From an uncultured Gammaproteobacteria bacterium (GTDB taxonomy: Bacteria; Patescibacteriota; Patescibacteriia; UBA2196; GWA2-42-15), in the NCBI GenBank assembly GCA_964573135.1, contig CAZNIO010000007.1:117-64116 (forward strand): a DNA stretch of 64,000 nt. Reading direction: 5' to 3'. Below are positions 3,799 through 47,852 of the stretch, in pieces (position 1 is the first letter of the stretch; the number at the start of each line of letters is the position of its first letter). The notes beneath the pieces are model-generated. The model was given only the letters and a program-made list of their open reading frames with translations, was not told where the DNA came from and did not search any database. Both the position numbers and the translations under genes were made by a program.

Positions 3799-3804
3799 AG
3801 CCCA

Positions 3805-3832: not shown

Positions 3833-3872
3833 TAAATAATTTATTAATTCTTATATAACTAAACAAAAATAT

Positions 3873-10061: not shown

Positions 10062-10064
10062 ATA

Positions 10065-10746: not shown

Positions 10747-10773
10747 ATATGATATTATGTCAAATAGTACATT

Positions 10774-24383: not shown

Positions 24384-24633
24384 CTAGCACAACGCCTATT
24401 ATTATTGCAGTAACAGCCACACCCGCCATAAAGATTGGTGAAAGGACCACAGTCAATATTTTCTCCCATAAGGTTGGTTCTATATAAGGGCCACTTACGC
24501 CATACATTTCTATCCCATTAGGTGGTGCAACGCCATACATTACCTGCATCTGGGCAGAAGCACCAGTGCGCTTAAAAGCAAAAGTTAGAATTGCTCCTAG
24601 AAAATATATAATTTTTTTCTTTATTTCCTTCAT
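24340..24633 (-). CDS. Small bitopic membrane protein (signal/TM, ~45-aa Gly/Tyr/Pro-rich ectodomain, TM, KKKK tail); paralog A. It is a candidate substrate of the adjacent radical SAM enzyme. Trimmed to Met at 24633.
   Basis: MKEIKKKIIYFLGAILTFAFKRTGASAQMQVMYGVAPPNGIEMYGVSGPYIEPTLWEKILTVVLSPIFMAGVAVTAIIIGVVLVVKRKKKK. Confidence 0.6.
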   Translation of the reverse strand: MKEIKKKIIYFLGAILTFAFKRTGASAQMQVMYGVAPPNGIEMYGVSGPYIEPTLWEKILTVVLSPIFMAGVAVTAIIIGVVLVVKRKKKKNAQKDF

Positions 24634-24640
24634 ATTTTTT

Positions 24641-24928
24641 CTAAATTTGATTATTATCTTTCTTCTTTTTCCTGTGCCTAATAACAAGCACTACGCCAAG
24701 TATTACTGCAACCACAGCCACGCTCACCATAAATACTGGTGAGAGAACCACTAATAATATTTTTACCCACAAAGGCTGTTCGATGGCAGGGCCTACGCCA
24801 TACGCGGCTCTTGCCGGTGAGTCATTGCCATAATCAATTTGCATTTGAGCAAAAACGCCAGCGCTTTTAAGCGCAAATACCAAAAAGCCACCTAGGAGAT
24901 ATTTAATTTTTTTCTTTATTTTCCCCAT
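24641..24928 (-). CDS. Small bitopic membrane protein, paralog B of 24340-24633 (~55% identical, same layout).
   Basis: MGKIKKKIKYLLGGFLVFALKSAGVFAQMQIDYGNDSPARAAYGVGPAIEQPLWVKILLVVLSPVFMVSVAVVAVILGVVLVIRHRKKKK. Confidence 0.6.
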   Translation of the reverse strand: MGKIKKKIKYLLGGFLVFALKSAGVFAQMQIDYGNDSPARAAYGVGPAIEQPLWVKILLVVLSPVFMVSVAVVAVILGVVLVIRHRKKKKDNNQI

Positions 24929-25726: not shown

Positions 25727-26917
25727 ATGAGCCTATTACCCAGTAAAAAAAGTTATCTTGGTATTGATTTGGGGACTTCCGCTATTAAAATAGTGGAACT
25801 ACAGAATAAAAATGGTCGGGCTGTACTACTTACCTATGGTTATGTTGAGCAACCAACAGACATTGTCCGCTCATCATCCTCTGAGATGGAAGAAAGAATT
25901 GTCGAGATCGTTAAAAGCATCTGCCAAAAAAGTCGTACCACCTCAAAAAAAGTAATTGCTGCCTTACCCAGCTTTTCGGTTTTTACGTCAATTATCAGCC
26001 TGCCTGCCATGAAAAAGAAAGACCTCCATCAGGCTATCAAATGGGAAGCCAAAAAATTTATACCCCTACCCATTGAAGATATGGTACTTGATTGGAAAAT
26101 TGTACCGCCAGAGGGGAGTCAACATACGGCTCAAACTCCCAAAGCAGATCACAAATCCGAGAAAAAGGACGAGTCCAAAAAAGAGGGGTCAGACAAGGAA
26201 GAAGATTCATCCTCTAATCCACTTTCTAAACTTTTTAAAAAAGACCATTCAGATAAGGAAACCAAATTAAAAAAGGAAGATCAAAATCTTAAAATACTTT
26301 TAACCGCTGCTCCTAAAACCTTAGTTGAAAGATATCTGCGCATTTTTAAATCAGCTGGGTTGGAGATTGTGAGCTTGGAAACTGAGTCCTTTGCCCTTGA
26401 GCGCTCTTTGCAAGGCGGTGACCCCGCTCCAGTTATGATCATCGATATCGGTGCTGTCTCCTCAGATATTGTTGTTATCAATAACGGTATTCCCATTCTT
26501 AACAGAAGTATTGATGTCGGTGGTGTAACTATCACCAAAGCTATCATGTCTAGCTTAAATGTTGATATTACTCGAGCAGAGCAGTTTAAGCGTGACATTG
26601 GTTTTTCTGATTTAGGTGAAGATAATTTGCCAAATGTCATTAAAACATCCATCAGCCCAATTATTAATGAAATCAAATATTGCTTAGACATCTATTTATC
26701 TCAAGCTGGTACCAATAATATTGAAAAAATTATTCTAACCGGTGGTAGCTCATGGTTGCCCGATCTAGCTAAGCATTTAAGTAAAATTTTAGACGTTAAG
26801 GTTATTATAGGAGACCCATGGGATAGAGTAGTTTATCCCCTTGAATTAAAACCCGTTTTAAAAGAGCTAGGACCGCGCTTCTCTGTAGCCGTTGGTCTAG
26901 CTATGCGGGAAATGTAA
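25727..26917 (+). CDS. pilM: Type IV pilus assembly protein PilM (actin-like ATPase fold) with a ~55-aa K/E/D/S-rich low-complexity insertion.
   Basis: YLGIDLGTSAIKIVELQ phosphate-1 motif; first gene of a pilMNO order; insertion KADHKSEKKDESKKEGSDKEEDSSS. Confidence 0.85.
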   Translation: MSLLPSKKSYLGIDLGTSAIKIVELQNKNGRAVLLTYGYVEQPTDIVRSSSSEMEERIVEIVKSICQKSRTTSKKVIAALPSFSVFTSIISLPAMKKKDLHQAIKWEAKKFIPLPIEDMVLDWKIVPPEGSQHTAQTPKADHKSEKKDESKKEGSDKEEDSSSNPLSKLFKKDHSDKETKLKKEDQNLKILLTAAPKTLVERYLRIFKSAGLEIVSLETESFALERSLQGGDPAPVMIIDIGAVSSDIVVINNGIPILNRSIDVGGVTITKAIMSSLNVDITRAEQFKRDIGFSDLGEDNLPNVIKTSISPIINEIKYCLDIYLSQAGTNNIEKIILTGGSSWLPDLAKHLSKILDVKVIIGDPWDRVVYPLELKPVLKELGPRFSVAVGLAMREM

Positions 26918-26918
26918 T

Positions 26919-28028
26919 ATGTTCGATAATATAGACAAAAAAGCCAAAGATATTGAGGAAGAAAGTGGAATTAATCTTCTGCCCAGTGATATGCGACCCA
27001 AAAAGGAGAAGGTTAGACACGAGCACCTGCCCAGCAAAGATGCTGCTGATTTTCATATTCCTGAAAAAAAAATAAAGCCGCTCACACCACACATAAAACC
27101 TCAGCCCAAAAAAGAAAAAAAACCTAAAGTTAAAAAACCTGGTTTTTGGAGTAAGTTTTTAGCCAAGCGTAAGCGCAAGAAAGCCGAAAAGAAATTTAAA
27201 AAGATAATGGCCCAAAAGAAAATTCAAGCAATCAACAAGAAGAGAAAAAAGAAGAAACCAGCCGTTGTTCCAGGTAATATTGCCCCGCCCCAACCTAAGC
27301 CCCCTGCCGCTCCTCATTTTCAGCACAAGCTGTTAGATCCCCCAGTTAAGCAGGATTTTGAAAAACCCATTATTTCCAAACCAGCTGATGACTATAGTCA
27401 GATAAAATTAAGTCATGCCAAGCCTCTGCCTCAGGAAGATGATGAGCTGGATGTTAATCTACTGCCCCCAGAAAAACAGCTTCCTTCAGGCAAAAAAATG
27501 GCTACCCGCTACGCGCTAGCCGCTCTAATCGCTGTAGCTATAGTCGCCTTGCCATATATTTTTTTCCAGGCCAAAAAAGCAGGCCTTATTAAACAGGCCA
27601 ATGATTTAAAAATTCAGATAGAATCTGTTGAAAAAGAAATGCTGAAAACGAGTGACCTCATTAAAAAATTTGGGCCATTAGTTGATCGCCTCGATACCCT
27701 CGGCGTTTTACTCGACAACCACATCTATTGGAGTCGTCTCTTCCCCATTTTAGAAAAACACACAGCTCAAGGAGTATACTTCACCGATCTTTCAATCAGT
27801 CCCCAAACACAAATTATTTTAACTGGCAAAGCGCGCAATATACGTTCATTGGCCGAAGAACTTGTTGTTCTCAAAAATGGTGATGCCTTTACCGACGTCA
27901 CTTTGTCCTCTCTGCGCCTGCCAGAAATCGGAAAAGAGGAAGAGGGTAAAATTCCTACCGTAGATTTTACTATTTCTTTTACACTTGACAGCAAAATTAT
28001 TAATTTGTTACAGCTAGAAGAGGAATAA
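26919..28028 (+). CDS. pilN: PilN-like inner-membrane pilus assembly protein with a ~190-aa Lys/Pro-rich N-terminal extension.
   Basis: Single TM helix (YALAALIAVAIVALPYIFF) followed by a coiled-coil periplasmic domain; sits between pilM and pilO; basic KKPK/KRKKK repeats at the N-terminus. Confidence 0.65.
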   Translation: MFDNIDKKAKDIEEESGINLLPSDMRPKKEKVRHEHLPSKDAADFHIPEKKIKPLTPHIKPQPKKEKKPKVKKPGFWSKFLAKRKRKKAEKKFKKIMAQKKIQAINKKRKKKKPAVVPGNIAPPQPKPPAAPHFQHKLLDPPVKQDFEKPIISKPADDYSQIKLSHAKPLPQEDDELDVNLLPPEKQLPSGKKMATRYALAALIAVAIVALPYIFFQAKKAGLIKQANDLKIQIESVEKEMLKTSDLIKKFGPLVDRLDTLGVLLDNHIYWSRLFPILEKHTAQGVYFTDLSISPQTQIILTGKARNIRSLAEELVVLKNGDAFTDVTLSSLRLPEIGKEEEGKIPTVDFTISFTLDSKIINLLQLEEE

Positions 28029-28029
28029 T

Positions 28030-28647
28030 ATGGATCATCAGTCACACAACAAGAATAATAATGATAAGAAGATAGTTTGGTATATTAAGTATTTTAAACC
28101 CCTTATCATCATCATCCCCTTACTCATCTTGGTGGCTGGCTATTTTGTTTTTTTACAGGACGTTTACGGAGAGTATAATCAATCTAAAAGCTATATAGGA
28201 GAAAATCAAAATCAGCTCCAAGCTAAAAAGGCCCAGTTACTTAGTCTTAACAAAGTTCATCAAGGCTTTAAGGATATTAGCCTGGCTGACCGCGCTCGAG
28301 TAGCCGATATTCTACCGGAAACAATTGACGAGTCCAGCCTTTACGTCAATATTGAAAAACTTATAACCGACCCAGGCGTGACTGGTCAACTGGAAGATGT
28401 TTTCGTCAGCCCATATAAAGAAGAGAATACCAGAAAGAAAAAGGATAAATCAGCTCTTGATCTCTTGTCAGCCAAACTGAATAAAGCCAACGTTAGTTTG
28501 TCCGTTTCCAGTATAAACTATATTAATCTTAAAGTTCTTTTTGAACTTATTGAAAAGAATATTAGACTTTTTGATGTTAAGTCATTTTCATATACTGCCA
28601 AAGACGGCGAGTTAGAAATTATGATGATGGCCTATTTTTTAGAATAA
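28030..28647 (+). CDS. pilO: PilO-like pilus assembly protein (TM helix plus coiled coil).
   Basis: TM helix LIIIIPLLILVAGYFVFL followed by a helical periplasmic region; position in the operon. Confidence 0.6.
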   Translation: MDHQSHNKNNNDKKIVWYIKYFKPLIIIIPLLILVAGYFVFLQDVYGEYNQSKSYIGENQNQLQAKKAQLLSLNKVHQGFKDISLADRARVADILPETIDESSLYVNIEKLITDPGVTGQLEDVFVSPYKEENTRKKKDKSALDLLSAKLNKANVSLSVSSINYINLKVLFELIEKNIRLFDVKSFSYTAKDGELEIMMMAYFLE

Positions 28648-28660
28648 AATCAAAACCCTT

Positions 28661-28954
28661 ATGAAAGGCATGTCCAAAAAGAAAATAATAATTTATGTGT
28701 CACTGTTTGCTGTTATTATTGCAGCTAATATTTACTATTACATATCAACCACCAATTCAGGTGAAAAGCAAGATACTACTTCAAGCGTAGCCCTAGAACT
28801 TGCAGTATCTCAAATGTCTGATCAGGGGGAAGCACAAAAAAGGCAGTCTGTTTTAGAGCACGACCTTTTCCGCGAGCTTGAAAAGCTGGGTGAATGGCCG
28901 GTTGTTCCCAACCAGGTTGGTCGCGCTAATCCTTTTCTTCCCTTCTTTGAATAA
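28661..28954 (+). CDS. Small membrane-anchored protein inside the pilus operon (unknown, possibly PilP-like).
   Basis: TM helix IIIYVSLFAVIIAANIYYYI; located between pilO and pilB. Confidence 0.4.
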   Translation: MKGMSKKKIIIYVSLFAVIIAANIYYYISTTNSGEKQDTTSSVALELAVSQMSDQGEAQKRQSVLEHDLFRELEKLGEWPVVPNQVGRANPFLPFFE

Positions 28955-28962
28955 TATATTAT

Positions 28963-30696
28963 ATGAAAAAGCCTGAAGAAGCCAAAGAGCAACTTTTACA
29001 CTATTTTGTAAAAGCAAATAAAGTTGACAATAAGCTTGCCAAAGAACTCGGCCAAGAGAAACAACTGGTCGATCTCGAGGCCAAGCTTATCACCCAAGCT
29101 AAGATATCAGAAGAAGAAATCGCCCGAGCCAAGGCGTCTCTTTTTAATTTGTCCTTTCTTGCTCTAAGCGACCAGAAAATTCCCATGGAGGTTTTAGACA
29201 TTTTGCCAAGAGAGCTAGCTGAAAATTATGGCATGGTTGCCTTTGGTAAACAAGATAATATTATCAGTATTGGCTTAGTCGACCCCACCAACCTAAAAGC
29301 GCGTGAAGCCGCTGATTTCGTAGCTCGTGGTAAAAATTTAAAAACTGAATATCATCTTATTACTAAAACTGCCCTGCACCGCGCTTTGCAGCAATATGGC
29401 AGTTTGAAACTGGAAGTTGGTGAGGCCCTTGAAATGGCCAAAGACAAATTTGGAGAAGGCAGACAGGTTATTGATGAAAAAATGGAAAAGGTCATCAAGT
29501 CAGCCCCTATCTCAAAAATGGTTGCCGTCATTTTAAAACACGCCGTTGAATCACGTGCTTCAGATGTCCACATTGAGCCAACCACAGAAGAAACACATGT
29601 GCGCTATCGCGTTGACGGCAGACTTAAATTATCTTTAGTTTTACCCAAATACGTACACGCCGCTATTATTTCGCGTATCAAAGTCATGTCTAACCTGCGT
29701 ATTGATGAAACCCGCATTCCCCAAGATGGCAGGATCAGGCTCAACATTGGTGGCAGTAACATTGATTTTCGTGTTTCCACTCTCCCTCTATATAGCCAAG
29801 AGAAAGTGGTTATGAGAATTTTAGATACTTCTGGTGGTGTCTCCACCTGGGAAGAGCTTGGTTTCGAAAGCCACAATTTAGAGATAATGAAAAAGAATAT
29901 TAAAAAACCTCATGGCCTATTTCTAGTTACCGGCCCCACTGGTAGCGGTAAATCCACTACCCTGTATGCCGCCTTGCAAATCTTAAATAAAGAAGAGGTT
30001 AATATTGTCACCCTCGAAGACCCAGTCGAGTACTACTTAAAAGGGGTTAATCAGTCTCAGGTCAGACCAGCAGTCAAATTCACCTTTGCTTCAGGTTTAC
30101 GCTCTATCCTGCGTCAAGATCCAGATATTATCATGGTCGGCGAGATCAGGGACGCTGAAACTGCTGAATTGGCCATTCATGCCGGTTTGACAGGTCATAT
30201 TGTTCTCTCTACCTTGCATACCAATGATGCTTTTGGCGCCATTCCGCGTTTAATTGATATGAAGATTGAACCATTTTTAATCTCATCTACCTTAAATATT
30301 GTAGTTGCTCAAAGATTGGTCAGAAGTATTTGCCCTAAATGTAAGGAAGAATCAGAGCTACCGCCCACCACGCGCCAGGAAGTTGAAGAAATTTTTACAA
30401 GCATCCCGTCAAAAAATTTGCCACAAGGTATTACTAAGGAAAGCTTGAGCAAAGTATATCGCGGTAAAGGATGTCCTCATTGTAATCAGACCGGCTACAA
30501 GGGCCGATCAGCTATTGCCGAAGTTCTTGAAATTAATGATGAGATTAAGGATGTTGTTAATTCTGGTTTTAAGTTAAGTACTATCAAAGAAATGTTTATA
30601 AAACAAGGCATGCTTAGCTTAAAACAAAACGGCTTAGTCAAAGTGCTTGAGGGTAGAACTACTATTGAAGAAATCCTAACAGTTACCAAGGATTAG
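28963..30696 (+). CDS. pilB: Type IV pilus assembly ATPase PilB/GspE (extension ATPase).
   Basis: Walker A GPTGSGKST, Asp box VTLEDPVEY, Walker B DIIMVGEIRD, His box LSTLHTN, tetracysteine CPKC...CPHC, and an N-terminal GspE_N domain. Confidence 0.93.
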   Translation: MKKPEEAKEQLLHYFVKANKVDNKLAKELGQEKQLVDLEAKLITQAKISEEEIARAKASLFNLSFLALSDQKIPMEVLDILPRELAENYGMVAFGKQDNIISIGLVDPTNLKAREAADFVARGKNLKTEYHLITKTALHRALQQYGSLKLEVGEALEMAKDKFGEGRQVIDEKMEKVIKSAPISKMVAVILKHAVESRASDVHIEPTTEETHVRYRVDGRLKLSLVLPKYVHAAIISRIKVMSNLRIDETRIPQDGRIRLNIGGSNIDFRVSTLPLYSQEKVVMRILDTSGGVSTWEELGFESHNLEIMKKNIKKPHGLFLVTGPTGSGKSTTLYAALQILNKEEVNIVTLEDPVEYYLKGVNQSQVRPAVKFTFASGLRSILRQDPDIIMVGEIRDAETAELAIHAGLTGHIVLSTLHTNDAFGAIPRLIDMKIEPFLISSTLNIVVAQRLVRSICPKCKEESELPPTTRQEVEEIFTSIPSKNLPQGITKESLSKVYRGKGCPHCNQTGYKGRSAIAEVLEINDEIKDVVNSGFKLSTIKEMFIKQGMLSLKQNGLVKVLEGRTTIEEILTVTKD

Positions 30697-30733
30697 TATG
30701 GGAGGATTTAGTAATTAATATTTTTTAAATTAT

Positions 30734-31804
30734 ATGTCACAAGCCAGTCTAATATTCAATAGAATACTCAACTCCAGCATTACTCAAGGTGCATCATATA
30801 TCCACCTCGAATCGGGTAACAAGCCGACCCTGCGCATTGCCGGTCGCCTCAAAGGCCTTGAAGATGAATCCGTTGTTGATGGAGACTTTATTACAGAAAT
30901 TGTTAAAATTATTCTCTCGGCCGACCAGCAAGAAGAACTTGAAAAAAATAAATCAATTATTGTTGTCCACAATTTTGAAGGCGGTATGCGCTTCAAAATT
31001 AATATTTTCTACCAAAAAAGTAGCCTGGCTATGATATTTAAGTATCTTCCAGCTGAAATTAAAAAATTAGTTGATCTTGGTTTGACTGACCAGTTTATAA
31101 AACTTCTTAATAAAAAGAAGGGTCTCATTTTAGTTACCGGACAGCACGGTTCTGGCAAAGCCTCTACCTCCGCTTCAATGTTAAACCACATTAACACCAA
31201 TGCTTCACGTTATATCATAACTATTGAAAATCCAATTCAATATATTATTCCTCCATCCAAAAGTATTATTGATCAAAGAGAGGTTGGTAAGGATACCCTT
31301 AGCTTTGAGAAAGCCATCAGTTTTGCCGAAGAAAGTGATGCTGACATTGTCTTTTTATCAGAAGTCAATAATGCTAAGTCTTTAGAAAAAGCCATTGATC
31401 TTATCGACAGTGGTCGTCTAGTAATCGCTGTTGTTGAAGCCCCTTCTGCCGCCGATTCCATTGAACATCTTATAAATTTAGTGGCTGATACTGAAAGATC
31501 TAAGCATCGTCAAATCATCTCGAATCTTCTACTTGGTACGCTTGTTCAAAGGCTTATCCCTAGAAGAGGCGGAGGACAAATCGTTGTCCTCGAACTTTTA
31601 ATTGCCAATCCTGCCGTCAGCTCTTTAATTAAAGAAGGTAAGCACGCTCAATTAAGCAGTATTATTCAAACTTCGCGTGACGAGGGCATGCGCACCCTTG
31701 ATCAGTCTCTTATTGAGCTGGTACACACCGGAGAAGTGGATGCCAAAGACGCTCTGCCAGTGGCCACTGATAAAATAGGGTTTCAGGCCGCCGTTCAAGA
31801 ATAG
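30734..31804 (+). CDS. PilT/PilU-like ATPase paralog with degenerate catalytic motifs (probable pseudo-ATPase).
   Basis: Collinear with PilT, but Walker A is GQHGSGKAS (Ala after the Lys), the Asp box EDPIE is ENPIQ, Walker B DIILVGEMRD is DIVFLSEVNN, and the His box TLHT is VVEA. Confidence 0.7.
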   Translation: MSQASLIFNRILNSSITQGASYIHLESGNKPTLRIAGRLKGLEDESVVDGDFITEIVKIILSADQQEELEKNKSIIVVHNFEGGMRFKINIFYQKSSLAMIFKYLPAEIKKLVDLGLTDQFIKLLNKKKGLILVTGQHGSGKASTSASMLNHINTNASRYIITIENPIQYIIPPSKSIIDQREVGKDTLSFEKAISFAEESDADIVFLSEVNNAKSLEKAIDLIDSGRLVIAVVEAPSAADSIEHLINLVADTERSKHRQIISNLLLGTLVQRLIPRRGGGQIVVLELLIANPAVSSLIKEGKHAQLSSIIQTSRDEGMRTLDQSLIELVHTGEVDAKDALPVATDKIGFQAAVQE

Positions 31805-31807
31805 TTT

Positions 31808-33013
31808 ATGTTGTATAACTACAAAACAAAAAATAAACAGGGTCAGACAATTGAAGGTACAGTTGAAGCCCCCAGTAAAAACGAAGCCATTTCCCGCTTG
31901 GCTGAAGAGGGTTTTGTTATTATTTCTATCGAAAAAACTGGTGGTAAAAATTTGGCTGAAATTGACATTGCTTTTTTAAATAGAATTCAAACCAAGGACT
32001 TGGTTATGTTTTCTCGACAGCTGGCCGTCATGTCATCCGCCACCTTGCCCATCGTACAGTCTCTGCGTATCTTGTCGGAACAAACCGAAAACCCAAAACT
32101 TCAAAAGATCATTGATGAAATCGCCGATGACGTGGATGGTGGTGAAAAACTTTCAAACTCTCTTGAACGCCACCCTAAGGTTTTTAGTGATTTTTTTATC
32201 GCCATGGTTCGATCAGGCGAAACCTCGGGTAAGGTTGATAAAGTTCTTAATTATTTAGCTGATGAGCAGGAAAAAGACTATGCCCTGATGAGTAAAATTA
32301 AAGGAGCCATGATTTACCCTGCTTTTATCCTGACCGCTCTTGGCGGTGTTGGAATCATTATGATGGTTTTTGTAGTGCCTAAACTTACTTCAATACTACA
32401 AGAAACCGGTGGTGAATTGCCCATAGCCACTAAAATTCTGATTAGTTCAAGCAGTATTTTAACTAGCTGGTGGTGGGCCCTCCTCATCGTTCTTGGTCTT
32501 GCTTTTGTTGGTACCAAATGGATACTAAAAAAAGACAAACCAAAACAATATTTTGACTATTTTAAATTAAAAATTCCAGTTTTTGGTACTCTTTTCCAAC
32601 GTATCCATTTGGTGCGATTTACTCGCAGTTTAGCCACCCTAGTTGAAGGCGGCGTACCTTTGCCCAAATCTCTTGAAATAGTAGCAGATGTTGTCGGCAA
32701 TGAATTTTACAGACATCTGATTCAAAAGACCAGAAAAGATGTGGAAGACGGCAATCCTGTGGCCACTCTTTTTCTAAGAAGCAAGGAAGTGCCTAAAATG
32801 ATTTCTCATATGTTGTCAGTCGGTGAAAAAACCGGTCGCATTGCCGAAGTTTTAAACAAGATGACTGATTTTTATGCTAAAGAAATTGAAAGCATGGTCT
32901 CCAATTTGGTTAGCCTTATTGAACCCATGATCATGATCCTCATGGGTGTTGCCGTTGGCATTATGGTCGCCGCAGTTATTATGCCCATGTACAATATGGC
33001 CTCAGGATTTTAG
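31808..33013 (+). CDS. pilC: Type IV pilus inner-membrane platform protein PilC/GspF.
   Basis: Two GspF repeats and 3 TM segments; conserved RSGE..G and VGE..G motifs. Confidence 0.9.
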   Translation: MLYNYKTKNKQGQTIEGTVEAPSKNEAISRLAEEGFVIISIEKTGGKNLAEIDIAFLNRIQTKDLVMFSRQLAVMSSATLPIVQSLRILSEQTENPKLQKIIDEIADDVDGGEKLSNSLERHPKVFSDFFIAMVRSGETSGKVDKVLNYLADEQEKDYALMSKIKGAMIYPAFILTALGGVGIIMMVFVVPKLTSILQETGGELPIATKILISSSSILTSWWWALLIVLGLAFVGTKWILKKDKPKQYFDYFKLKIPVFGTLFQRIHLVRFTRSLATLVEGGVPLPKSLEIVADVVGNEFYRHLIQKTRKDVEDGNPVATLFLRSKEVPKMISHMLSVGEKTGRIAEVLNKMTDFYAKEIESMVSNLVSLIEPMIMILMGVAVGIMVAAVIMPMYNMASGF

Positions 33014-33150: not shown

Positions 33151-33621
33151 ATGCGAAATAAAAAAGGTTTTACATTAATTGAGCTGTTGGTGGTTATTGC
33201 TATTATCGGACTTTTGGCAACCTTGTCAGTCGTAGCATTAAATAATGCACGTCAGAAATCAAGAGATGCCAAGAGAGTCTCTGATGTTAAGCAAGTTCAG
33301 ACAGCCCTCGAGCTTTATTTTATTGATGCTAACCATTATCCAGTTAAAGCTACTGCAGTTACTCTAGGTGTCAGTCCAAATGATACTCTAAGTGCAACTG
33401 GTGGATTTGCTGATGCTGTAAATGGCACCACCTATATGGGCCAAGTTCCAGCTGATCCAGGCGTTGCCTCGGGTTATGTTTATTCATATGTCAGCGTTTC
33501 GGGAAGCGGAACTTATTCCTTTACCTTTGGTCTTGAAGGCGCTACCGGCGGGTTGACTTGTGCTGGCGGTTATGACGCTACTTGTTGCGTAGCCTCTCCA
33601 GATGGTATTATTTGTACCTAG
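33151..33621 (+). CDS. Type IV (major) pilin.
   Basis: Prepilin leader plus N-terminal helix [30 protein letters not shown]; a C-terminal Cys pair; a terminator follows. Confidence 0.85.
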
Positions 33622-33649
33622 TCTGGAAGATTTTCACTGTTAAGTTTGA

Positions 33650-33676
33650 ACCCCCCGATATATCGGGGGGTTTTTG
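33650..33676 (+). terminator. Rho-independent terminator after the pilin gene.
   Basis: aaccccccgatatatcggggggttttt. Confidence 0.7.
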
Positions 33677-33744: not shown

Positions 33745-34566
33745 ATGGATTGGTTTTTATACATTCTTGTTTTTATTCTAGGTTCCCTTATGGGTAGTTT
33801 TTTGAATTGTGTTATTTACCGCTTACATCAAGGCAAATCTTTTCTACGTGGTCGCTCTTTTTGCCCTAAGTGTAAAAAAATAATTAAGTGGTATGATAAT
33901 ATTCCGCTTGTTGGATTCCTTGCTCTCCGAGGCAAATGTCGCTTTTGTCTGAAGAAAATTTCTTGGCAATACCCAATAGTAGAGCTAACCACCGCCATTA
34001 TCTTTCTTATTATCTTCCTTGTTAGATTCTCAAGTCTTGATTTTAATCTTTTATCATTCACACATATTGATATTCTCGTCATCCTGCGTGATTGGATATT
34101 TAGTTGTTTTCTTTTAATTATCTTTATCTATGATTTAAAGTATTATCTTATTCTTGATAAGGTCAGTATCCCCGCCATGATTATTGCCTTAGCTCTAAAT
34201 TTAATTATCCAGCTTGCTTCTCATGGTTGGCATTCAATATTTTCTGCTCTCTTTTCATATCTTTTAGCAGCTTTAGTGTGTGGCGGGTTTTTTCTCCTGC
34301 AGTTTCTAATCTCGCGTGGCAAATGGATAGGTGGAGGAGATATACGACTTGGATTTCTTATGGGCCTCATGCTTGGTTGGCCGTATGCCTTGGTTGCCCT
34401 TTTTATGGCATACATCCTTGGCGCTTTGATAGGTACGGGCCTCCTAGCCACCGGTAAAAAGAAAATGCAATCTCAAATACCCTTTGGCACTTTTTTGAGC
34501 CTGGCTACCCTGGTCGCCCTGCTTTTTGGGAGTCAATTACTTAACCAATATTTATCCATTCTTTAA
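33745..34566 (+). CDS. pilD: Prepilin peptidase PilD (A24 family).
   Basis: N-terminal zinc-binding CPKC...CRFC, multiple TM segments and the conserved catalytic Asp regions. Confidence 0.88.
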   Translation: MDWFLYILVFILGSLMGSFLNCVIYRLHQGKSFLRGRSFCPKCKKIIKWYDNIPLVGFLALRGKCRFCLKKISWQYPIVELTTAIIFLIIFLVRFSSLDFNLLSFTHIDILVILRDWIFSCFLLIIFIYDLKYYLILDKVSIPAMIIALALNLIIQLASHGWHSIFSALFSYLLAALVCGGFFLLQFLISRGKWIGGGDIRLGFLMGLMLGWPYALVALFMAYILGALIGTGLLATGKKKMQSQIPFGTFLSLATLVALLFGSQLLNQYLSIL

Positions 34567-34575
34567 TTAAAGACA

Positions 34576-35130
34576 ATGAAAAAATTTAGCACAAATCAAT
34601 CCGGCTTCACCATTATTGAGCTTCTCATATCTTCAATGATTATTATAATAATATCAACCCTAGTTATTGTTAATTTTCGCAATCAAACACAAAAAGTGGC
34701 CCTTGAAAAAGAAACAGAAAGATTGAGTGGTGCTATTCGTCAAGTTCACATCAACGCTTTAACCGGACTCTTGGTTGATGGCTCTCGCCCCACTGGCGGT
34801 TTCGGCATTCACTTAGAAGAATGTAGCACCGACTGCCACTATATTCTTTTTGCCGACCAAGATGGTGATTATATCTATGAGGAAGGTATAGATGATATAT
34901 GGCAGACTTTGGGCGTTCTTGAAAACGAGGTCTACCTGGTTGATCTTTCACTTGATCCCGATGGCGCTCAAATTGAAGTTGATATTGTTTTTACTTCTCC
35001 TAAGGGAGATATTTACGTTAACGGTCTTGATGACCAAGACAGCGCTACTATTGTACTTGGCTTTCAAAATCATTCTCTAACTCAAACCATTACTTTTGAT
35101 CCTATCAACGGCCGAATCAACATTGAATAA
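34576..35130 (+). CDS. Minor pilin / pseudopilin.
   Basis: Prepilin N-terminus QSGFTIIELLISSMIIIII. Confidence 0.7.
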   Translation: MKKFSTNQSGFTIIELLISSMIIIIISTLVIVNFRNQTQKVALEKETERLSGAIRQVHINALTGLLVDGSRPTGGFGIHLEECSTDCHYILFADQDGDYIYEEGIDDIWQTLGVLENEVYLVDLSLDPDGAQIEVDIVFTSPKGDIYVNGLDDQDSATIVLGFQNHSLTQTITFDPINGRINIE

Positions 35131-35136
35131 CTCATT

Positions 35137-35685
35137 ATGTTTAAAAGCAAACGCAACCAAAAAGGACTTACCCTTGTAGAAACAACCGTTGCCCTGGGTA
35201 TTATTATGATGGGCGTCCTGGCCAGCCTTGTTTTAATGATGGCTACTTTTAATTTTGCCCAAAGAAACGAGCAGGAGATAGTTATCGTCAATCTGGCTCG
35301 TGAAGGCATAGAAATTGTTAGAGCCATGCGCAATACCGGTTCAATTGATCTTTTTGATGGAACATACGATGGGCAAAATTTTATCGTTGATTCAGATGCC
35401 AATTTCAATTTAGATACCAGCGTGGGAGAGAGTATTGATTATGACATTGATGATTGCTCATCGTGTAGCCTTTATATAAGCGATGGTCGCTATTTACATG
35501 AGGATACTGGTGATATCACTATCTTTAAAAGAATCGTTAGAATACGCAATGTTTCAGGTAATGAGAAAAAAATTACTTCCGAAATACGCTGGCAGCACAA
35601 AGGCCAAAACCATGATTTTCTATTAGAAACCAATTTTACTAATTGGGTTGATGAATTGCAAACCAAATTATTTAACCAAGAGTAA
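35137..35685 (+). CDS. Minor pilin / pseudopilin.
   Basis: Prepilin N-terminus QKGLTLVETTVALGIIMMGV. Confidence 0.7.
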   Translation: MFKSKRNQKGLTLVETTVALGIIMMGVLASLVLMMATFNFAQRNEQEIVIVNLAREGIEIVRAMRNTGSIDLFDGTYDGQNFIVDSDANFNLDTSVGESIDYDIDDCSSCSLYISDGRYLHEDTGDITIFKRIVRIRNVSGNEKKITSEIRWQHKGQNHDFLLETNFTNWVDELQTKLFNQE

Positions 35686-35690
35686 CTCCT

Positions 35691-36269
35691 ATGAGTTTAT
35701 TTCGTATAAAAAAGAATAATGTTAAAGGTTTTACCTTACTTGAAATGATCCTTGCTCTTGGTATTTTTATAATCCTCTTTACTTTGACCCTGGGTATCTA
35801 TTCTTATGCTTTGCGCGCCGAACAAAAAACCACTCAACTATCACGCTTGCAAAAAGAAGCCCAACTCATTATGGAAATTGTAGCTAAAAAGGTTAGAAAT
35901 TCACGTATTGATTATGCTTGGTATTCGGGTGAGCTTTCTTCCCCTGAAAGCAGTCTAGCCCTTCTTGACAAGTCAGCTGAGCGCACTGTTTTTAAATTGA
36001 AAACTGATGTTCTGGGTGATAATTTTGCCATTTGTTCTTTGGGAGACTGCGTCTCAGACGATGATTTTTCTATTATCCCTGCTAGCAACATAGTTATTGC
36101 CAGTCTGAATTTCTATATCAGTCCCTTAGTTGATCCTTTCAGTCTCGACGAACTACCTAGTGAATACCCCAGAGTCACCATCGTTGTTGATCTCGAGCAC
36201 ACCCAGGGAGGTATTACGCGCAACATGTTAGTTCAACAAACCATCCCCCAGAGATTAGGAGGATTTTAA
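35691..36269 (+). CDS. Minor pilin / pseudopilin.
   Basis: Prepilin N-terminus VKGFTLLEMILALGIFIIL. Confidence 0.7.
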   Translation: MSLFRIKKNNVKGFTLLEMILALGIFIILFTLTLGIYSYALRAEQKTTQLSRLQKEAQLIMEIVAKKVRNSRIDYAWYSGELSSPESSLALLDKSAERTVFKLKTDVLGDNFAICSLGDCVSDDDFSIIPASNIVIASLNFYISPLVDPFSLDELPSEYPRVTIVVDLEHTQGGITRNMLVQQTIPQRLGGF

Positions 36270-36278
36270 TATAAATCA

Positions 36279-37103
36279 ATGAAGCAAACACCCTGCCAAT
36301 TAAATAATCAGCAAGGTATCGCCCTTATTCTAGCCGTACTCATCTTGGCTAATCTTTTTATTATCGCTTTTATTGTTAGTGATATTGTTATTCGTATTGG
36401 CAAAAGTAGCCACCAAATTGGTTACTCGGAAATTGCCTATTTAGCTGCAGAAACTGCAGTTGAAAAAACAATCTATTCCATTGAATCTGATCGTGATTTA
36501 ACATCACTTGGCACCGAAGCCTCTCCTGTCACCGGTCAGCTTGAGTTTGTCGACGCCGAGTGGTTAAGCTATGTTACTCCTATTACTCAAACTGGTGTTA
36601 TCTGCATTGATAACAATCAGAAATTTAGTTTTCCAGCTGTTGACCCAGATGATGGAGTCCATAGCTGTATTTATTCAGATGCTCCTAGCGCTGATATTGA
36701 TAATACCAATCCTTTAAGGGTGCATCTCCAGGCTGGTAAAACTTTCTACCTAGAGCTTGATATTGATGGCATCGACTATCCAAATTTTCTTGATCTTAGC
36801 TGGCAGAACAAAAGGCCCGGCCAAGTCATTATCCTGAATCTTGATGAGACAGGAGAAGATATCCAGACAATTGTCGACACCAATGACGTTAAACAAGCCC
36901 AAGTGCCGCCCACAGGCAGTCTAAGCGCCAATCAGCGCTTTGATATTAGAAACGAGCACTCAAGTGACATTATCTATACCATTACCCCTTCCTTGGGCGA
37001 TTATGCCCTGACTTTAAGTATTATGGTTTATAACCAGGGGCAATATAGCACCTCACAGGAAAGAATCATCGAAGTTGAGCGACGCAATTGGCAAATCTAT
37101 TAA
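36279..37103 (+). CDS. Putative minor pilin (PilX-like) with an atypical leader.
   Basis: QQGIALILAVLILANLFIIAF hydrophobic N-terminus; position at the end of the pilin operon. Confidence 0.45.
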   Translation: MKQTPCQLNNQQGIALILAVLILANLFIIAFIVSDIVIRIGKSSHQIGYSEIAYLAAETAVEKTIYSIESDRDLTSLGTEASPVTGQLEFVDAEWLSYVTPITQTGVICIDNNQKFSFPAVDPDDGVHSCIYSDAPSADIDNTNPLRVHLQAGKTFYLELDIDGIDYPNFLDLSWQNKRPGQVIILNLDETGEDIQTIVDTNDVKQAQVPPTGSLSANQRFDIRNEHSSDIIYTITPSLGDYALTLSIMVYNQGQYSTSQERIIEVERRNWQIY

Positions 37104-37809: not shown

Positions 37810-40629
37810 ATGTCCAATAAAATTGTTATCAAAGGCGCTCGTGTCCATAATCTGCAAAATCTTGATCTTGAGATACCTAAGAACAAATTGGTGGTGATCA
37901 CCGGCCTTTCGGGCTCTGGTAAATCAAGTCTTGCCTTTGATACAATCTATGCTGAAGGTCAGCGTCGTTACGTAGAAAGCCTATCTTCCTATGCCAGACA
38001 GTTTTTAGGGCCTAAAGGCAAGCCCGACGTTGAAAGTATCGAGGGGCTTTCGCCAGCCATTGCTCTTGACCAGCGACCAATCTCTAACAACCCGCGTTCT
38101 ACTGTGGGCACCATAACTGATGTCTATGATTATTTGCGTGTGTTCTACGCGCGTCTTGGCGTAGCTCACTGTCCAGAGTGCAAAAAACCGCTTGGTCAGC
38201 AAACCAAAGAGCAGATACTAAAGAATATACACAAACTATTTGATGGTAAGGAATTTCTTGTCCTGTCACCACTGGTTAAAGAACGGACAGGCGAGCATTT
38301 AAAAATACTTCGTCAAATTAGCAAAACTAAATATACTCAAGTGCGTATTGATAATGAGATCTATCCTAACCGCAACTTGGATGATATCGGCTTAGACGCG
38401 AATAAGAAACACACTATTGAGGTAATCATCGCTGAAATCGATCTTGCAACTAATAGCAATGGAGATAAATTGCCAAAGCTTTCACAAATAGTCTCTACCG
38501 CCCTTGACCTCAGTAATGGTTCTCTGGTTATCTATTATCCAGAAGAAGATGTCAATCATTTTTTCACACAAAACCTGGCTTGTTTTGAATGTAATATTAA
38601 TTTAGATTCAATTGAGCCCAGGCTTTTTTCTTTTAATTCTCCACGTGGAGCTTGCCCTGATTGTAAAGGTCTTGGTACCCGCCTAGATTTGGATGCTAAT
38701 TTACTTGTACCCAGCCAAAAGCTTACTTTAGCCGAAGGCGCCATTCGTCCTTTTTCACGACTTAATGGCTCTGCTTCTTCATCTGGCATGAAAACTCTAG
38801 AAAATTTAGGAAAACAATATGATTTTTCAATTAATACACCTTGGAACAAACTGACTGAATCTCAAAAAGATATTATTCTTTGCGGAGAGGCCAACGGACA
38901 AAAACTCTCAAAAAAAGATCAACGAAAGTATGCTGGTGTTGTAAATATCTTACTTAAGAAATATGAGGGCAGTGACTCAGAATATGTACGTGGTGAAATT
39001 TCTAAATATATGCGGATAAGGCAGTGTGAAACTTGTCATGGTCAAAGGCTTAAGCCAGAAAGTTTAAATGTGACAGTGGGAGACAAAAACATTTCCGAAG
39101 TTGCTCAAATGACCATTGACAAGGCTAAGCAATTTTTAAATTCTCTCAAATTTTCTTCTCGGGATAAGAAAATAGGGCAACCGTTAATTAAACAAATTGT
39201 TTTTAGATTAAAGCTCTTGTCTGATGTTGGATTAAATTATTTAACCCTTGATCGTTCAGCTGAGACCCTCTCAGGCGGGGAGGCCCAGCGTTCACGTTTG
39301 GCCACTCAAATTGGTTCTGGACTATCTGGAGTTATATATATTCTTGATGAACCATCTATTGGTTTGCATCAAAAAGATAATGACAAACTCATTGGTACAT
39401 TAAAAAAACTTAGAAGTTTAGATAATACCATTATTGTGGTTGAACATGATGAAGCCACTATTCTTGCCAGTGACTGGGTAATTGATATCGGTCCAGGGGC
39501 TGGCAAGCATGGCGGGCAATTAGTCGCTCAAGGCAAACCCGAGATTTTTATGAAAAATAAAAATTCCTTGACCGCTGACTATTTGTCAGGCCGCAAAAAA
39601 ATTGAGCCCCCCAGTAAAAATCATCATGGAAATGGTAAAAAGATAGAGATTCTTGGGGCTTCTGAATTTAATTTACAAAATATTGATGCCCGTATACCTT
39701 TGGGTAAGTTGGTTTGTGTTACTGGTGTTTCAGGATCTGGTAAATCTACCCTAGTCACAGACATTCTTTCTCGTGCTTTAGCCCAGAAATTTTATCGGGC
39801 AAAGGAACTGCCAGGAAAACACAAAGCCATTAAGGGTATGGAATATATTAATAAGGTGGTAACAATTGATCAAAGCCCTATTGGTCGCACACCACGCTCC
39901 AACCCCGCCACCTATACAGGCGTTTTCACATATATCCGTGATTTATTCACTGGTATCCCAGAAAGTCGCATTAAGGGGCTGACTGCTGGTCACTTCTCCT
40001 TTAATGTCAAGGGGGGGCGTTGTGAGGCTTGTGAAGGGGACGGAGTTCTCAAAGTTGAAATGCATTTCTTGCCGGATGTATATGTTACTTGTGAAGAGTG
40101 CCAAGGACACCGTTATCGCCAAGAAGTTCTAGAAATATATTATAGAGGTAAAAATATCTCAGATATTTTAGAAATGACCGTTGAAGATGCTTTGGAATTC
40201 TTCAAGGATATAACTCCCATTGCCAGTAAACTTAAAATTCTTGATGATGTTGGTCTTGGCTATATTCACCTTGGTCAGCCAGCCACCACACTGTCTGGTG
40301 GTGAAGCCCAGCGAATTAAACTGGCCGCTGAGCTCTCAAGACGTGCTACTGGCCGCACTCTATATATATTGGACGAACCAACCACTGGTTTACATTTTGA
40401 AGACATAAAAAAATTGCTTAAAGTTTTGAATAAATTGGTCGACAAAGGTAATACAGTACTTGTTATTGAACATAATCTTGATGTTATAAAATGTGCTGAC
40501 TGGATATTAGATATTGGACCCGGCGGAGGGGACAAAGGCGGACAAATTGTTACTCAAGGTACCCCTCAAACCGTCGCTCAATGCAAAAAAAGTTATACCG
40601 GACAATTTCTAAAAAATGTTTTAAAATAG
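37810..40629 (+). CDS. uvrA: Excinuclease ABC subunit A (canonical-length UvrA).
   Basis: Two ABC modules with Walker [10 protein letters not shown] and GVSGSGKST, signature LSGGE twice, and zinc-finger cysteines CPEC, CFEC, CPDC, CEAC. Confidence 0.95.
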
Positions 40630-41018: not shown

Positions 41019-41633
41019 CTAGATTTTTTTCTTGGTCAGCTTGGTTAATTCTTCTCTGATCTCTTTCCAGCTAACTTTTTCTACCATCCTCGGCAGTGGC
41101 TCTTTTTCTGCATCCTCAAAATATATCAAACTTTTAAGTATATGTGGTAGATTATAATCAAAGCCTCTATATTTTCTACTAAATGTTTTGACTAACAACT
41201 CAAACGATATTTGTTTTAAAATAAAGTACAAGTCAATAAAATCTTTTTTACTGCCCCTGCCAGATACTGCAGTGAGTTTCATGCAAGCGATATCTCGCCA
41301 ATCAGCTAAATATGCATTCTCGTATTTCTTTTTTTTATACAATAATTTATATGGGTAATACAAAAAACTAACTGCTACACTATCCAAATCAACATGCAAC
41401 GTGTCCTCATCTTGAGACTTAATTTTTACCTTGCCTATCTTTTGTAATTCACGCTTAATACTGTCCACCTTGAATTTCTTGTAACTAAAAAAATCAAGAT
41501 CTATTGATTGCCTATGCCCAAACTGCAATGCTAAAGCAGTGCCACCAGCTAAATAGAAATTTTTGACGATCTTGGTATTATTAAATAATATTAAAACGCG
41601 CCGCGTCCCTGGCGCGAGAGTCTTTTCGAACAT
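41019..41633 (-). CDS. AbiEii/AbiGii-family nucleotidyltransferase (type IV TA toxin-like).
   Basis: FYLAGGTALALQFGHRQSIDLDFF resembles the GGTALxLxxxxRxSxDIDF motif of Pfam NTP_transf_AbiEii. Confidence 0.6.
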   Translation of the reverse strand: MFEKTLAPGTRRVLILFNNTKIVKNFYLAGGTALALQFGHRQSIDLDFFSYKKFKVDSIKRELQKIGKVKIKSQDEDTLHVDLDSVAVSFLYYPYKLLYKKKKYENAYLADWRDIACMKLTAVSGRGSKKDFIDLYFILKQISFELLVKTFSRKYRGFDYNLPHILKSLIYFEDAEKEPLPRMVEKVSWKEIREELTKLTKKKI

Positions 41634-47847: not shown

Positions 47848-47852
47848 ATTTT

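Follow-up and report, generated by a model that had tools for sequence, protein, structure and literature searches.

The analysed window is a 64 kb stretch of DNA from an ultra-small bacterium of the candidate phyla radiation, and it contains a type IV pilus operon of the generic pilMNO-pilB-pilT-pilC-pilin-pilD type. The genes and features of the operon were as follows.

25727..26917, + strand: pilM (Pfam PilM_2, 2.2e-49)
26919..28028, + strand: pilN-like gene (Pfam PilN, 1.9e-06)
28030..28647, + strand: gene in the pilO position, without a Pfam match; its slot is that of the PilO-domain genes in the related operons L004 and L049
28661..28954, + strand: small conserved ORF of 97 aa between pilO and pilB
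28963..30696, + strand: pilB, canonical extension ATPase (T2SSE, 2.9e-132, and MshEN; PDB PilB match, 5e-121)
30734-31804, + strand: degenerate PilT orthologue of 356 aa, with the ATG at 30734 and the stop codon ending at 31804
31808..33013, + strand: pilC, platform protein (T2SSF, 4.4e-65)
33151..33621, + strand: major pilin (N_methyl and T2SSG)
33648-33673: terminator-like hairpin of 11 pairs, 3′ of the major pilin
33745..34566, + strand: pilD, prepilin peptidase (A24_N_bact and Peptidase_A24)
34576..37103, + strand: four minor-pilin-like genes (34576-35130, 35137-35685, 35691-36269, and 36279-37103), the first three with an N_methyl motif and the fourth without a Pfam match

The PilT-like ORF starts 37 nt after the pilB stop codon and is separated from the pilC start by 3 nt. 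The pilO–pilB gap of related operons holds an ORF of 72–121 aa without a Pfam match, whether their PilT is canonical or degenerate. A reading of this DNA made from the sequence alone (the sequence-only reading) had spoken of a competence-pilus operon. A type IV pilus operon it is, but competence was inferred, and the sole link to it is dprA, 17 kb from the operon. At least three assemblies made independently of each other (SRR5581654, ERZ27315522, and ERZ27315763) contain an identical copy of the PilT-like protein, which rules out a sequencing artefact. The Rfam search of the 64 kb window showed one tRNA and no other match.

The PilT-like protein matched Pfam T2SSE (PF00437), the GspE/PilB/PilT secretion-ATPase superfamily, with 74 bits (E = 1.2e-20), above the gathering cut-off of 24.9. 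On the NCBIfam PilT/PilU model TIGR01420 it scored 300.9 bits, under the curated cut-off of 319.1. A canonical PilT of another candidate phyla radiation genome, P0094, reached 471.5 bits on this model. The phmmer search against the PDB showed A. aeolicus PilT as a match (E = 4.6e-71), and residues 9–347 of the query corresponded to PilT residues 16–355 almost without gaps. An identity as PilU was rejected: in the PDB search the protein scored 243 bits with PilT but 164 bits with PilU, and its place in the operon is not that of PilU. The structure prediction that had been proposed as a check returned an intact PilT fold: the AF2 model had a pLDDT of 94.2, and Foldseek aligned it with the ATP-bound G. 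metallireducens PilT4 (6OJX) at a TM of 0.92. The protein also keeps the N-terminal domain, the QREVG segment, and the C-terminal helical region of PilT.

The catalytic residues showed a different picture from the fold. Seven of the nine were replaced in the PilT-like protein, and only K142 (the Walker A Lys) and E210 (the catalytic Glu) remain. Residues were mapped with the G. sulfurreducens PilB chain 5zfr (offset 14) and with K136, E204, and R206 of V. cholerae/P. aeruginosa PilT. The numbers E163, H222, and H229 are those we take these PilT positions to have, counted relative to K136. The sites are listed below.

30989..31042, + strand: arginine-finger region, residues 86-103 (MRFKINIFYQKSSLAMIFK); R86 is kept, and K88 and K103 replace Arg (PilB R271 and R286)
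31139..31168, + strand: Walker A GQHGSGKAST, residues 136-145; K142 (= K136) is kept, with A143 for Ser/Thr
31217..31243, + strand: Asp box ITIENPIQY, residues 162-170; D166N and E169Q, Q169 being the E163 position
31343..31372, + strand: atypical Walker B DIVFLSEVNN, residues 204-213; G209S, R212N, and D213N, with E210 (= E204) kept
31409..31438, + strand: His-box region SGRLVIAVVE, residues 226-235; H222 is R228 and H229 is E235
31613..31636, + strand: AIRNLIRE-equivalent AVSSLIKE, residues 294-301, placed by alignment

The Walker A of PilT, GPTGSGKST, reads GQHGSGKAS here, and the pattern GxxGxGK[ST] is broken at Ala143. The Asp box EDPIE has become ENPIQ. The Walker B DVIFVGEMRD of A. aeolicus PilT corresponds to DIVFLSEVNN, in which N212 occupies the R206 position, and the His box GHLVFGTLHT to GRLVIAVVEA. 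The sequence-only reading had reported collinearity with PilT and alteration of these four motifs, and the PDB alignment placed the motifs exactly where it had claimed. Its statement that every catalytic signature is altered was too broad, since K142 and E210 remain. Canonical residues elsewhere in the sequence, which it had named as the finding that would speak against it, were looked for, and the near-gapless PDB alignment contained no canonical catalytic motif at any other position. The AVSSLIKE segment keeps A, L, I, and E of AIRNLIRE, whereas the first Arg and the Asn are Ser and the second Arg is Lys; its I299 is conserved in degenerate and canonical classes alike. Lys at both arginine fingers (K88 and K103) was absent from the earlier account. 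Both positions are Arg in 32 of 32 canonical sequences.

The literature describes complete conservation, among PilT-like ATPases, of the Walker A/B residues, the catalytic Glu, two arginine fingers, and an Asp-box Glu, and a loss of ATPase activity and function when these motifs are mutated. Single substitutions at these catalytic sites inactivate model PilTs. A natural R206S change in the PilT of V. cholerae strain MO10 causes impaired retraction and hyperpiliation, and E357 of G. metallireducens PilB, the equivalent of position 169, coordinates Mg. The adjacent PilB (28963-30696) was found to be fully canonical, as had been stated, with intact GPTGSGKSTT, LEDPVEY, DIIMVGEIRD, and TGHIVLSTLHT motifs, two arginine fingers, and the tetracysteine motif. 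Judged by its sequence and predicted model, the PilT-like protein 30734-31804 is a predicted pseudoenzyme, with catalytic residues lost and the fold retained.

The sequence-only reading had also called the gene a PilT paralog, which is misleading. In other candidate phyla radiation genomes, this very pilMNO-x-pilB-pilT-pilC-pilin-pilD slot contains a canonical PilT, and tblastn with the query and PilB detected no second PilT or PilU in the 64 kb window, only weak PilB–PilT cross-matches at the P-loop. The gene at 30734-31804 is therefore the operon's own positional PilT orthologue. Twelve canonical PilT genes of candidate phyla radiation type were examined; all lay in the operon slot, with no orphans among them. 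No second PilT was found within 10 kb on either side of 18 degenerate loci. Approximately 64–73 kb of the source genome are visible, and a canonical PilT or PilU may lie elsewhere in it.

About 160–175 degenerate homologues of the PilT-like protein were detected, mostly in Patescibacteria (Kuenen-, Kerfeld-, Buchanan-, and Komeilibacteria). The catalytic score of 197 single-domain homologues was bimodal, with approximately 30 at 9/9, approximately 160 at 1–6/9, and few between; the query scored 2/9. The P-loop Gly residues, Ser/Thr143, E165, E169, and Q181-R182-E183 are more than 90% conserved in the degenerate class, and the loss of constraint is centred on residues 201–260. The Walker A Lys is Arg in 99 of 162 degenerate relatives; the window protein keeps Lys. 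The catalytic Glu position is E in 78/162 only, and no more than a few of the 162 have Arg at the R206 equivalent, where it is outside the six commonest residues. The H222 equivalent is mostly Arg (105/162), and His is outside the six commonest residues at both His-box positions. Some relatives have a destroyed P-loop (GPYGSQQDLT and GPYGARQGTT), one subfamily reaches 6/9 and lacks the His box and R206 alone, and in a Buchananbacteria-type subfamily the Walker B Gly is replaced by E or D, so that the motif resembles a restored classical Walker B. The family is a graded natural series, from loss of the His box only to a destroyed P-loop, for dissecting the importance of each residue.

Position 143 is Ser/Thr in 161 of 162 degenerate relatives, and position 169 is E in 160 of 162 degenerate and 32 of 32 canonical sequences. 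The window protein is alone among approximately 160 degenerates in having Ala at the Walker A Ser/Thr together with Gln at the Asp-box Glu. Only the window protein is without both Mg2+ ligands, which are more than 98% conserved in the degenerate family, and by its residues it is an extreme member of that family.

The NJ tree of the full alignment placed 175 of 175 degenerates in one clade. With catalytic columns masked, 170 of 175 formed one pure clade, with unstable bootstraps in which the largest pure clade ranged from 49 to 173. A single origin of the degenerate clade is not claimed, given the unstable bootstrap replicates and possible long-branch attraction. No published description of a degenerate PilT family was found in the searchable literature (Patescibacteria, candidate phyla radiation, Parcubacteria, and pseudo-ATPase/pseudoenzyme).

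PilT was the most conserved protein in canonical operon pairs (PilT 54%, PilB 46%, and PilC 37%) and the least conserved in degenerate operon pairs (PilT 41%, PilC 48%, and PilB 53%). The dN/dS of degenerate pilT was 0.09–0.13 in three Kuenenbacteria operons (L054, L055, and L056), a sister group of 86–92% identity, the closest relative of the window gene being only 56% identical. The values for pilB and pilC were 0.07–0.15 and 0.11–0.13. In the PilTs of these three operons, Arg replaces the Walker A Lys, and the catalytic Glu position is occupied by R, T, or A. Degenerate PilT is under purifying selection, as observed in these close Kuenenbacteria relatives. The intact ORF and the family-wide conservation suggest that the window gene itself is maintained, and full-length intact ORFs persist among relatives of 30–56% identity. 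The degeneration is not recent decay, because a large group of homologues is degenerate in related ways and dN/dS is low. The comparison with orthologues in related CPR genomes, proposed earlier to tell conserved degeneration from recent decay, thus gave the former.

The sequence-only reading had described a retained, non-hydrolysing pseudo-ATPase, perhaps a latch. The retention and the loss stand, with seven of nine residues replaced, an intact fold, family-wide degeneration, and a dN/dS of approximately 0.1; non-hydrolysis and the latch role are an interpretation of these data. We consider it probable, at roughly 58%, that the operon's own PilT orthologue has turned into a pseudo-ATPase that does not hydrolyse ATP or is extremely slow at best. 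On the best reading, the non-hydrolysing PilT would have kept a scaffold and platform-binding role. From the conservation, a PilT-like ring would still assemble and would dock on the PilC/PilM platform, competing or alternating with PilB. We speculate that degenerate PilT may be a non-motor gate or adaptor that displaces or regulates PilB. Extension would be stopped, and low-force, motor-independent disassembly of the pilus would follow, or the pilus would be held static; the degenerate PilT would not use ATP energy to pull out pilins. In the majority of the family, nucleotide is probably still bound and serves as a switch, since both the P-loop and the Mg ligands have been conserved, with Arg as the usual residue at the Walker A Lys. 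The window protein, without even the Mg ligands, may work without regard to nucleotide. A PilT made ATPase-dead by K136A keeps a non-catalytic platform/adaptor function, and published work describes type IV pili that retract independently of a motor.

A working retraction ATPase with non-canonical chemistry, slower or weaker than classical PilT, is unlikely. Such an enzyme would use K88/K103 as fingers, R228 for the gamma-phosphate-sensing His, and Ser144 or Gln169 for Mg/water. The retained K142 and E210 favour it and count against a pseudo-ATPase, as Lys could partly replace the arginine fingers and weak ATPase activity is possible. The P-loop, Ser/Thr143, E165, and E169 of the degenerate family point to selection on nucleotide binding, and the conserved Mg ligands and P-loop of the wider family likewise argue, against the pseudo-ATPase, that nucleotide matters for most members at least. 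The frequent Arg at the first His-box position (105/162), the 6/9 subfamily missing the His box and R206 only, and the E/D at the Walker B Gly of the Buchananbacteria type are also in line with non-canonical catalysis. However, the query is without either Mg ligand, both kept at more than 98% even in the degenerate family, and the catalytic Glu position varies (R, T, A, or Q) among relatives of 80–92% identity at a dN/dS of approximately 0.1. The destroyed P-loops of some relatives and the inactivation of model PilTs by single substitutions at these sites also speak against a working enzyme.

Alternatively, an active ATPase of PilT/PilU type could lie elsewhere in the genome, and the protein could serve it as a non-catalytic adaptor, comparable to Vibrio PilT(K136A) with PilU, or form mixed or stacked rings with it; we regard this as rather unlikely. 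In V. cholerae, ATPase-dead PilT supports PilU-driven retraction, and covalent PilT–PilT tandem fusions occur elsewhere, some with one degenerate and one canonical half (P0127, P0267, and P0129); the partly visible source genome also leaves room for a partner. Nevertheless, pilB is the only other T2SSE-family gene in the 64 kb window, and the 10 kb flanks of the 18 other degenerate loci held no second PilT. Orphan canonical PilT genes would be expected to be common if genomes with a degenerate PilT generally had one, but 12 of 12 were in the operon slot, and TM7x, a cultivated Saccharibacterium, carries only one pilT. The V. cholerae case also bears against the pseudo-ATPase, as the dead PilT there is functional only with PilU ATPase activity; a dead PilT acting alone is therefore unprecedented. 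A decaying gene or assembly artefact without function is very improbable. The faster evolution of the PilT-like protein than of PilB and PilC and its score under the NCBIfam PilT cut-off would fit decay, but the identical protein in independent assemblies, the intact full-length ORFs among relatives of 30–56% identity, the model pLDDT of 94, the dN/dS of 0.09–0.13 in close relatives, and the tight coupling to pilB and pilC in the operon are against it. The dN/dS, conservation, and independent assemblies effectively refute the pseudogene or artefact reading.

With similar catalytic losses kept under purifying selection in a large group of related bacteria, the textbook motor mechanism is probably not the one by which their pili retract. 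We propose only tentatively that in a large Patescibacteria radiation (Kuenen-, Kerfeld-, Buchanan-, and Komeilibacteria-type) the only PilT motor may have become a selectively maintained, non-catalytic pseudo-ATPase. Pilus dynamics in these ultra-small episymbionts would then follow a different principle, with retraction motor-independent or PilB-driven and a PilT-shaped switch as its gate. Few machines are enriched and conserved across the candidate phyla radiation as type IV pili are, and in these obligate episymbionts the pili are thought to serve host attachment, twitching, and DNA uptake. Published reconstructions label the gene simply as "PilT, retraction ATPase". If a dead PilT is under strong purifying selection in much of the radiation, retraction, and hence force, DNA uptake, and host contact, would work differently. 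The label "PilT = retraction ATPase, twitching motility" would be wrong for these candidate phyla radiation lineages, and homology-based annotation would overpredict motility and retraction in their genomes. PilT would have a separable, selectable non-motor function, and these genomes would be a natural experiment on the adaptor or gating role hinted at by the dead PilT of Vibrio.

The window protein resembles the PilTs of A. aeolicus (2EWV), T. thermophilus (PilT2, 5FL3), G. metallireducens (PilT4, 6OJX), and P. aeruginosa (3JVV) in length, collinearity (approximately 30–36% identity), and two-domain fold (TM up to 0.92), and it shares with PilT the slot between pilB and pilC. The ASDxHL...G..P..R N-terminal segment, R86-F87, QREVG, the GGG loop, and much of the C-terminal region are kept. 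It differs from PilT in its seven replaced catalytic residues, in AVSSLIKE for AIRNLIRE, and in its score under the TIGR01420 cut-off. PilU (9N32), an accessory, PilT-dependent retraction ATPase, has the same PilT/PilU family fold. PilU is not known to have the canonical AIRNLIRE motif. Its Walker A Lys and its catalytic Glu are canonical, and its gene normally adjoins pilT, whereas the window gene lies between pilB and pilC.

The heterodimeric ABC transporters offer an analogy only: they have conserved a P-loop site that does not hydrolyse but serves structure or regulation. However, they belong to an unrelated fold family, and their complexes always contain an active site alongside the degenerate one. 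The ATPase-defective PilTs of V. cholerae (K136A, E204A, and the natural R206S in MO10) do not hydrolyse ATP and still occupy the machine, and R206S corresponds to the N212 position here. Those are single-site laboratory or strain variants with PilU-dependent retraction, whereas the changes in the window protein are multi-site and evolutionarily fixed, with no PilU found nearby. The window protein belongs to the degenerate Patescibacteria PilT-like family (P0002-P0092 and others; loci L005-L023, L036, and L043), with which it has in common the operon slot, the loss of the His box and of R206, the Walker B Gly to Ser change, and a variable catalytic Glu.

The ORF at 30734-31804 (+) encodes a PilT-like protein of 356 aa (PilT') within a complete type IV pilus operon, all on the + strand. 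It is separated by 37 nt from the stop of pilB and by 3 nt from the start of pilC.

Type IV pilus operon around pilT'
25727-26917, +, pilM
26919-28028, +, pilN
28030-28647, +, pilO-position gene
28661-28954, +, small conserved ORF of 97 aa between the pilO-position gene and pilB, no Pfam match
28963-30696, +, pilB
30734-31804, +, PilT-like gene (pilT')
31808-33013, +, pilC
33151-33621, +, major pilin, followed by a strong hairpin (33648-33673)
33745-34566, +, pilD
34576-37103, +, four minor-pilin-like genes

An identical copy of PilT' is present in several independent assemblies, so its unusual residues are not sequencing errors. The sole Shine-Dalgarno-like sequence in 30698-30733, GGGAGG, is ~27 nt upstream of the pilT' ATG and overlaps an in-frame mini-ORF of six codons that begins with ATG; none was found there at the usual distance from the start codon. 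Every related operon examined has an ORF of 72-121 aa in the pilO-pilB intergenic slot, whether its PilT retains the catalytic residues (canonical) or has several replaced (degenerate). The product of ORF 28661-28954 may be a lineage-specific pilus component.

PilT' was assigned to T2SSE (Pfam). The best phmmer match in the PDB was A. aeolicus PilT (4.6e-71), followed by T. thermophilus PilT2, Geobacter PilT4, and P. aeruginosa PilT, with PilU and PilB scoring below these PilT structures. The alignment with PDB PilT was almost gapless across residues 9-347. The AlphaFold2 model, with 65 homologues as input, had a pLDDT of 94.2 and matched ATP-bound G. metallireducens PilT4 with a TM of 0.92. 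PilT' scored 300.9 bits with the NCBIfam PilT/PilU model, just below the cut-off of 319.1, against 471.5 for a canonical PilT encoded in a different candidate phyla radiation genome.

Catalytic residues were mapped through the 5zfr PilB chain (offset 14) and, for PilT, by the V. cholerae/P. aeruginosa residue numbers that Adams et al. give. Seven of the nine key residues were replaced in PilT', and all nine were present in the adjacent PilB.

Key catalytic residues, reference and PilT'
Walker A Lys, K136, K142 (kept)
Walker A Ser/Thr, S137, A143
Asp-box Glu (Mg ligand), E163 / PilB E357, Q169
Catalytic Glu, E204, E210 (kept)
Arg after Walker B, R206, N212
His box, first His, H222, R228
His box, second His, H229, E235
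Arginine finger 1, PilB R271, K88
Arginine finger 2, PilB R286, K103

The PilT numbers E163, H222, and H229 are counted relative to K136. The PDB alignment confirmed each motif change listed in the sequence-only reading, and its description of PilB as canonical held. Its statement that every catalytic signature is altered went too far, since K142 and E210 are kept.

According to McCallum et al., PilT-like ATPases show complete conservation of the Walker residues, the catalytic Glu, an Asp-box Glu, and two arginine fingers. The same authors report Mg coordination by the Asp-box Glu, phosphate sensing by the fingers, and contact of the His box with the gamma-phosphate. In V. cholerae, one natural substitution, R206S, is enough to cripple PilT. 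Judged from its residues, meaningful ATP turnover by PilT' is unlikely, because seven key residues, both Mg ligands among them, are replaced.

Most of the 120 best database relatives of PilT' were also degenerate; the degeneration is shared and is not recent decay. The nearest clade (proteins P0002-P0027, 45-56% identity) includes several members named Kuenenbacteria, placed by NCBI taxonomy in the Patescibacteria/Parcubacteria group. Its consensus is G[YF]H[SG]SGRT at Walker A, with Arg for Lys in most members, D..[FY]LSE at Walker B, and GR.....EA at the His box. When the nine catalytic positions were scored in 197 single-domain homologues, the distribution was bimodal: about 30 scored 9/9, about 160 scored 1-6/9, and only four scored 7-8. 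PilT' scored 2/9. A GTDB scan added loci in Buchanan-, Kerfeld-, Komeili-, and Portnoybacteria-labelled and unclassified Patescibacteria genomes, some with fully destroyed P-loops such as GPYGARQGTT and GPYGSQQDLT. Matches in Saccharibacteria, in some Parcubacteria, and in Firmicutes and Coriobacteriia were canonical.

GPYGARQGTT, GPYGSQQDLT, and GPYNSQKAIT replace Walker A in Kerfeldbacteria-type loci L036 (10001-11008), L043 (8865-9869), and L023 (10001-11038), whose proteins are full-length despite this loss and lie between pilB and pilC. The Buchananbacteria-type loci L008-L015, L035, and L039 (pilT slot, ~10001-11040 in most) carry Glu/Asp at a Walker B position where all PilT-like ATPases have Gly. 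The resulting DVLFLEE restores the classical hhhh[DE]E form of Walker B in proteins that have Arg for the Walker A Lys and no longer have the His box. This subfamily may use an alternative catalytic chemistry.

Conservation was compared between 162 degenerate and 32 canonical sequences. Forty positions were conserved in both classes, including A20/H24/G28/P31/R34 (N-terminal), R86-F87, the P-loop glycines, E165, P167, E169, Q181-R182-E183, G281 (GGG loop), and I299. The 25 positions conserved only in canonical PilT were the catalytic ones: they include both arginine fingers, D166, G209, E210, R212, D213, T226, H235, T236, R245, R282, and R300. Mean conservation of residues 201-260 was 0.70-0.81 in the canonical versus 0.39-0.51 in the degenerate class, and in the C-terminal block 301-340 the degenerate class was at least as conserved as the canonical. 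Among the 162 degenerate sequences, the Walker A Lys position held Arg 99 times and Lys 61 times. Taken together, the family resembles a nucleotide-binding protein without hydrolysis machinery, because Ser/Thr143 (161/162) and E169 (160/162) are kept while the catalytic Glu is variable (E in 78/162). Loss of both Mg ligands (A143, Q169) was unique to PilT'.

The relative rates of PilT, PilB, and PilC were reversed between the classes. PilT was the most conserved in canonical-canonical operon pairs (54% versus 46% for PilB and 37% for PilC) and the least conserved in degenerate-degenerate pairs (41% versus 53% and 48%); it exceeded PilB in 91% and only 3% of pairs, respectively. In three close Kuenenbacteria operons (L054, L055, L056; protein identity 86-92%), Arg replaces the Walker A Lys of PilT, and the position of the catalytic Glu holds R, T, or A. 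The dN/dS of pilT (0.09-0.13) was indistinguishable from that of pilB (0.07-0.15) and pilC (0.11-0.13), which is not neutral decay. The catalytic Glu codon is thus hypervariable within a strongly constrained gene.

The sequence-only reading called pilT' a paralog, which the gene order contradicts. Canonical P0094, P0108, P0093, and P0118, from candidate phyla radiation-type operons, occupy the slot pilM-N-O-x-pilB-pilT-pilC-pilin-pilD, and the canonical genes of L020, L022, L024, L026, L028, L032, L040, and L045 lie in the same slot (12/12, no orphans). All 18 degenerate loci have the pilB-pilT'-pilC arrangement. No second PilT was found in the 64 kb window or within 10 kb either side of the 18 loci. 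Since canonical genes fill the same slot and no second PilT is nearby, pilT' is the positional orthologue of PilT. In the full-alignment NJ tree, all 175 degenerates formed a single clade beside canonical PilTs of other candidate phyla radiation lineages. With catalytic columns masked, 170/175 still formed one pure clade; bootstrap replicates were unstable, and we do not claim a single origin. L020 and L022 are separate pilB-pilT loci of one genome (JAKJED01, Patescibacteria UR.bin240), both with canonical PilT, so duplicated pilus systems do occur in Patescibacteria.

Other features of the window and sister operons were recorded. The only DNA-uptake links in the window are DprA (48784-49683, +) and a staphylococcal-nuclease-like protein (59774-60529, +), 17-28 kb downstream of the pilus operon. 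No ComEC was seen in the window; in L049 it follows the pilus operon. L054 (9303-9846) and L055 (9117-9738) share an insertion site between the genes for the major pilin and PilD that holds a different toxin-antitoxin cassette in each, BrnT/CopG in one and a PIN-domain pair in the other. AbiEii nucleotidyltransferase toxin matches (type IV toxin-antitoxin) were found in ORFs 41019-41633 (-) and 61188-61913 (+). Two small overlapping ORFs (24340-24687 and 24641-24928, -), whose similar-looking products contain hydrophobic segments, are followed directly downstream by a radical SAM/SPASM enzyme gene (23268-24383, -). This arrangement (23268-24928) resembles a peptide-maturation (RiPP-type) cluster and recurs in L001. 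Two UvrA-type genes encode 939 aa (37810-40629, +) and 855 aa (43167-45734, -), and they occur together with uvrC (41962-43170, -) and uvrB (45805-47910, -); two copies of UvrA seem unusual in a genome that is probably very small. Candidate adhesins for contact with a host are two very large proteins (1212 and 1741 aa; 160-9098, +) that carry a dockerin domain along with Ig-like, PKD, and CARDB repeats.

The residue loss, fold, and selection, which like the synteny are shown here, support the earlier proposal of a non-hydrolysing pseudo-ATPase kept in the operon; its role is a matter of inference. We favour PilT' as a PilT-shaped non-motor gate or adaptor, which would form a hexamer and bind the PilC/PilM platform. 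It would antagonise or regulate PilB and permit passive pilus disassembly. The gate or adaptor is favoured because ATPase-dead PilT in Vibrio still engages the machine and acts as an adaptor, and because several type IV pili are intrinsically capable of motor-independent, low-force retraction.

A decaying gene or an artefact is effectively excluded. A slow ATPase with non-canonical chemistry is improbable. That PilT' serves as adaptor to an active PilT or PilU from a gene elsewhere is also doubtful, if slightly less so; pairings of this kind do occur naturally, as seen in tandem PilT-PilT fusions in which one half is degenerate. P0121-P0130, P0191, and P0267 (~700-1000 aa) contain two tandem PilT modules, several with both halves canonical. 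In P0127 and P0267 the N-terminal half is degenerate and the C-terminal half canonical, and P0129 and P0191 have degenerate features in each half. By Rosetta-stone reasoning, these fusions hint that a degenerate PilT module can function as the partner of an active one.

No degenerate, pseudo-ATPase, or pseudoenzyme PilT was found in the literature searched, and within those limits the family appears undescribed. From their residues, its proteins would belong to the PilT family but have an active site that is conserved and non-catalytic. Papers on candidate phyla radiation type IV pili treat PilT as a retraction ATPase. The TM7x study reported ATP-binding and hydrolysis sites for Saccharibacteria PilT, which agrees with the canonical Saccharibacteria PilT found here.
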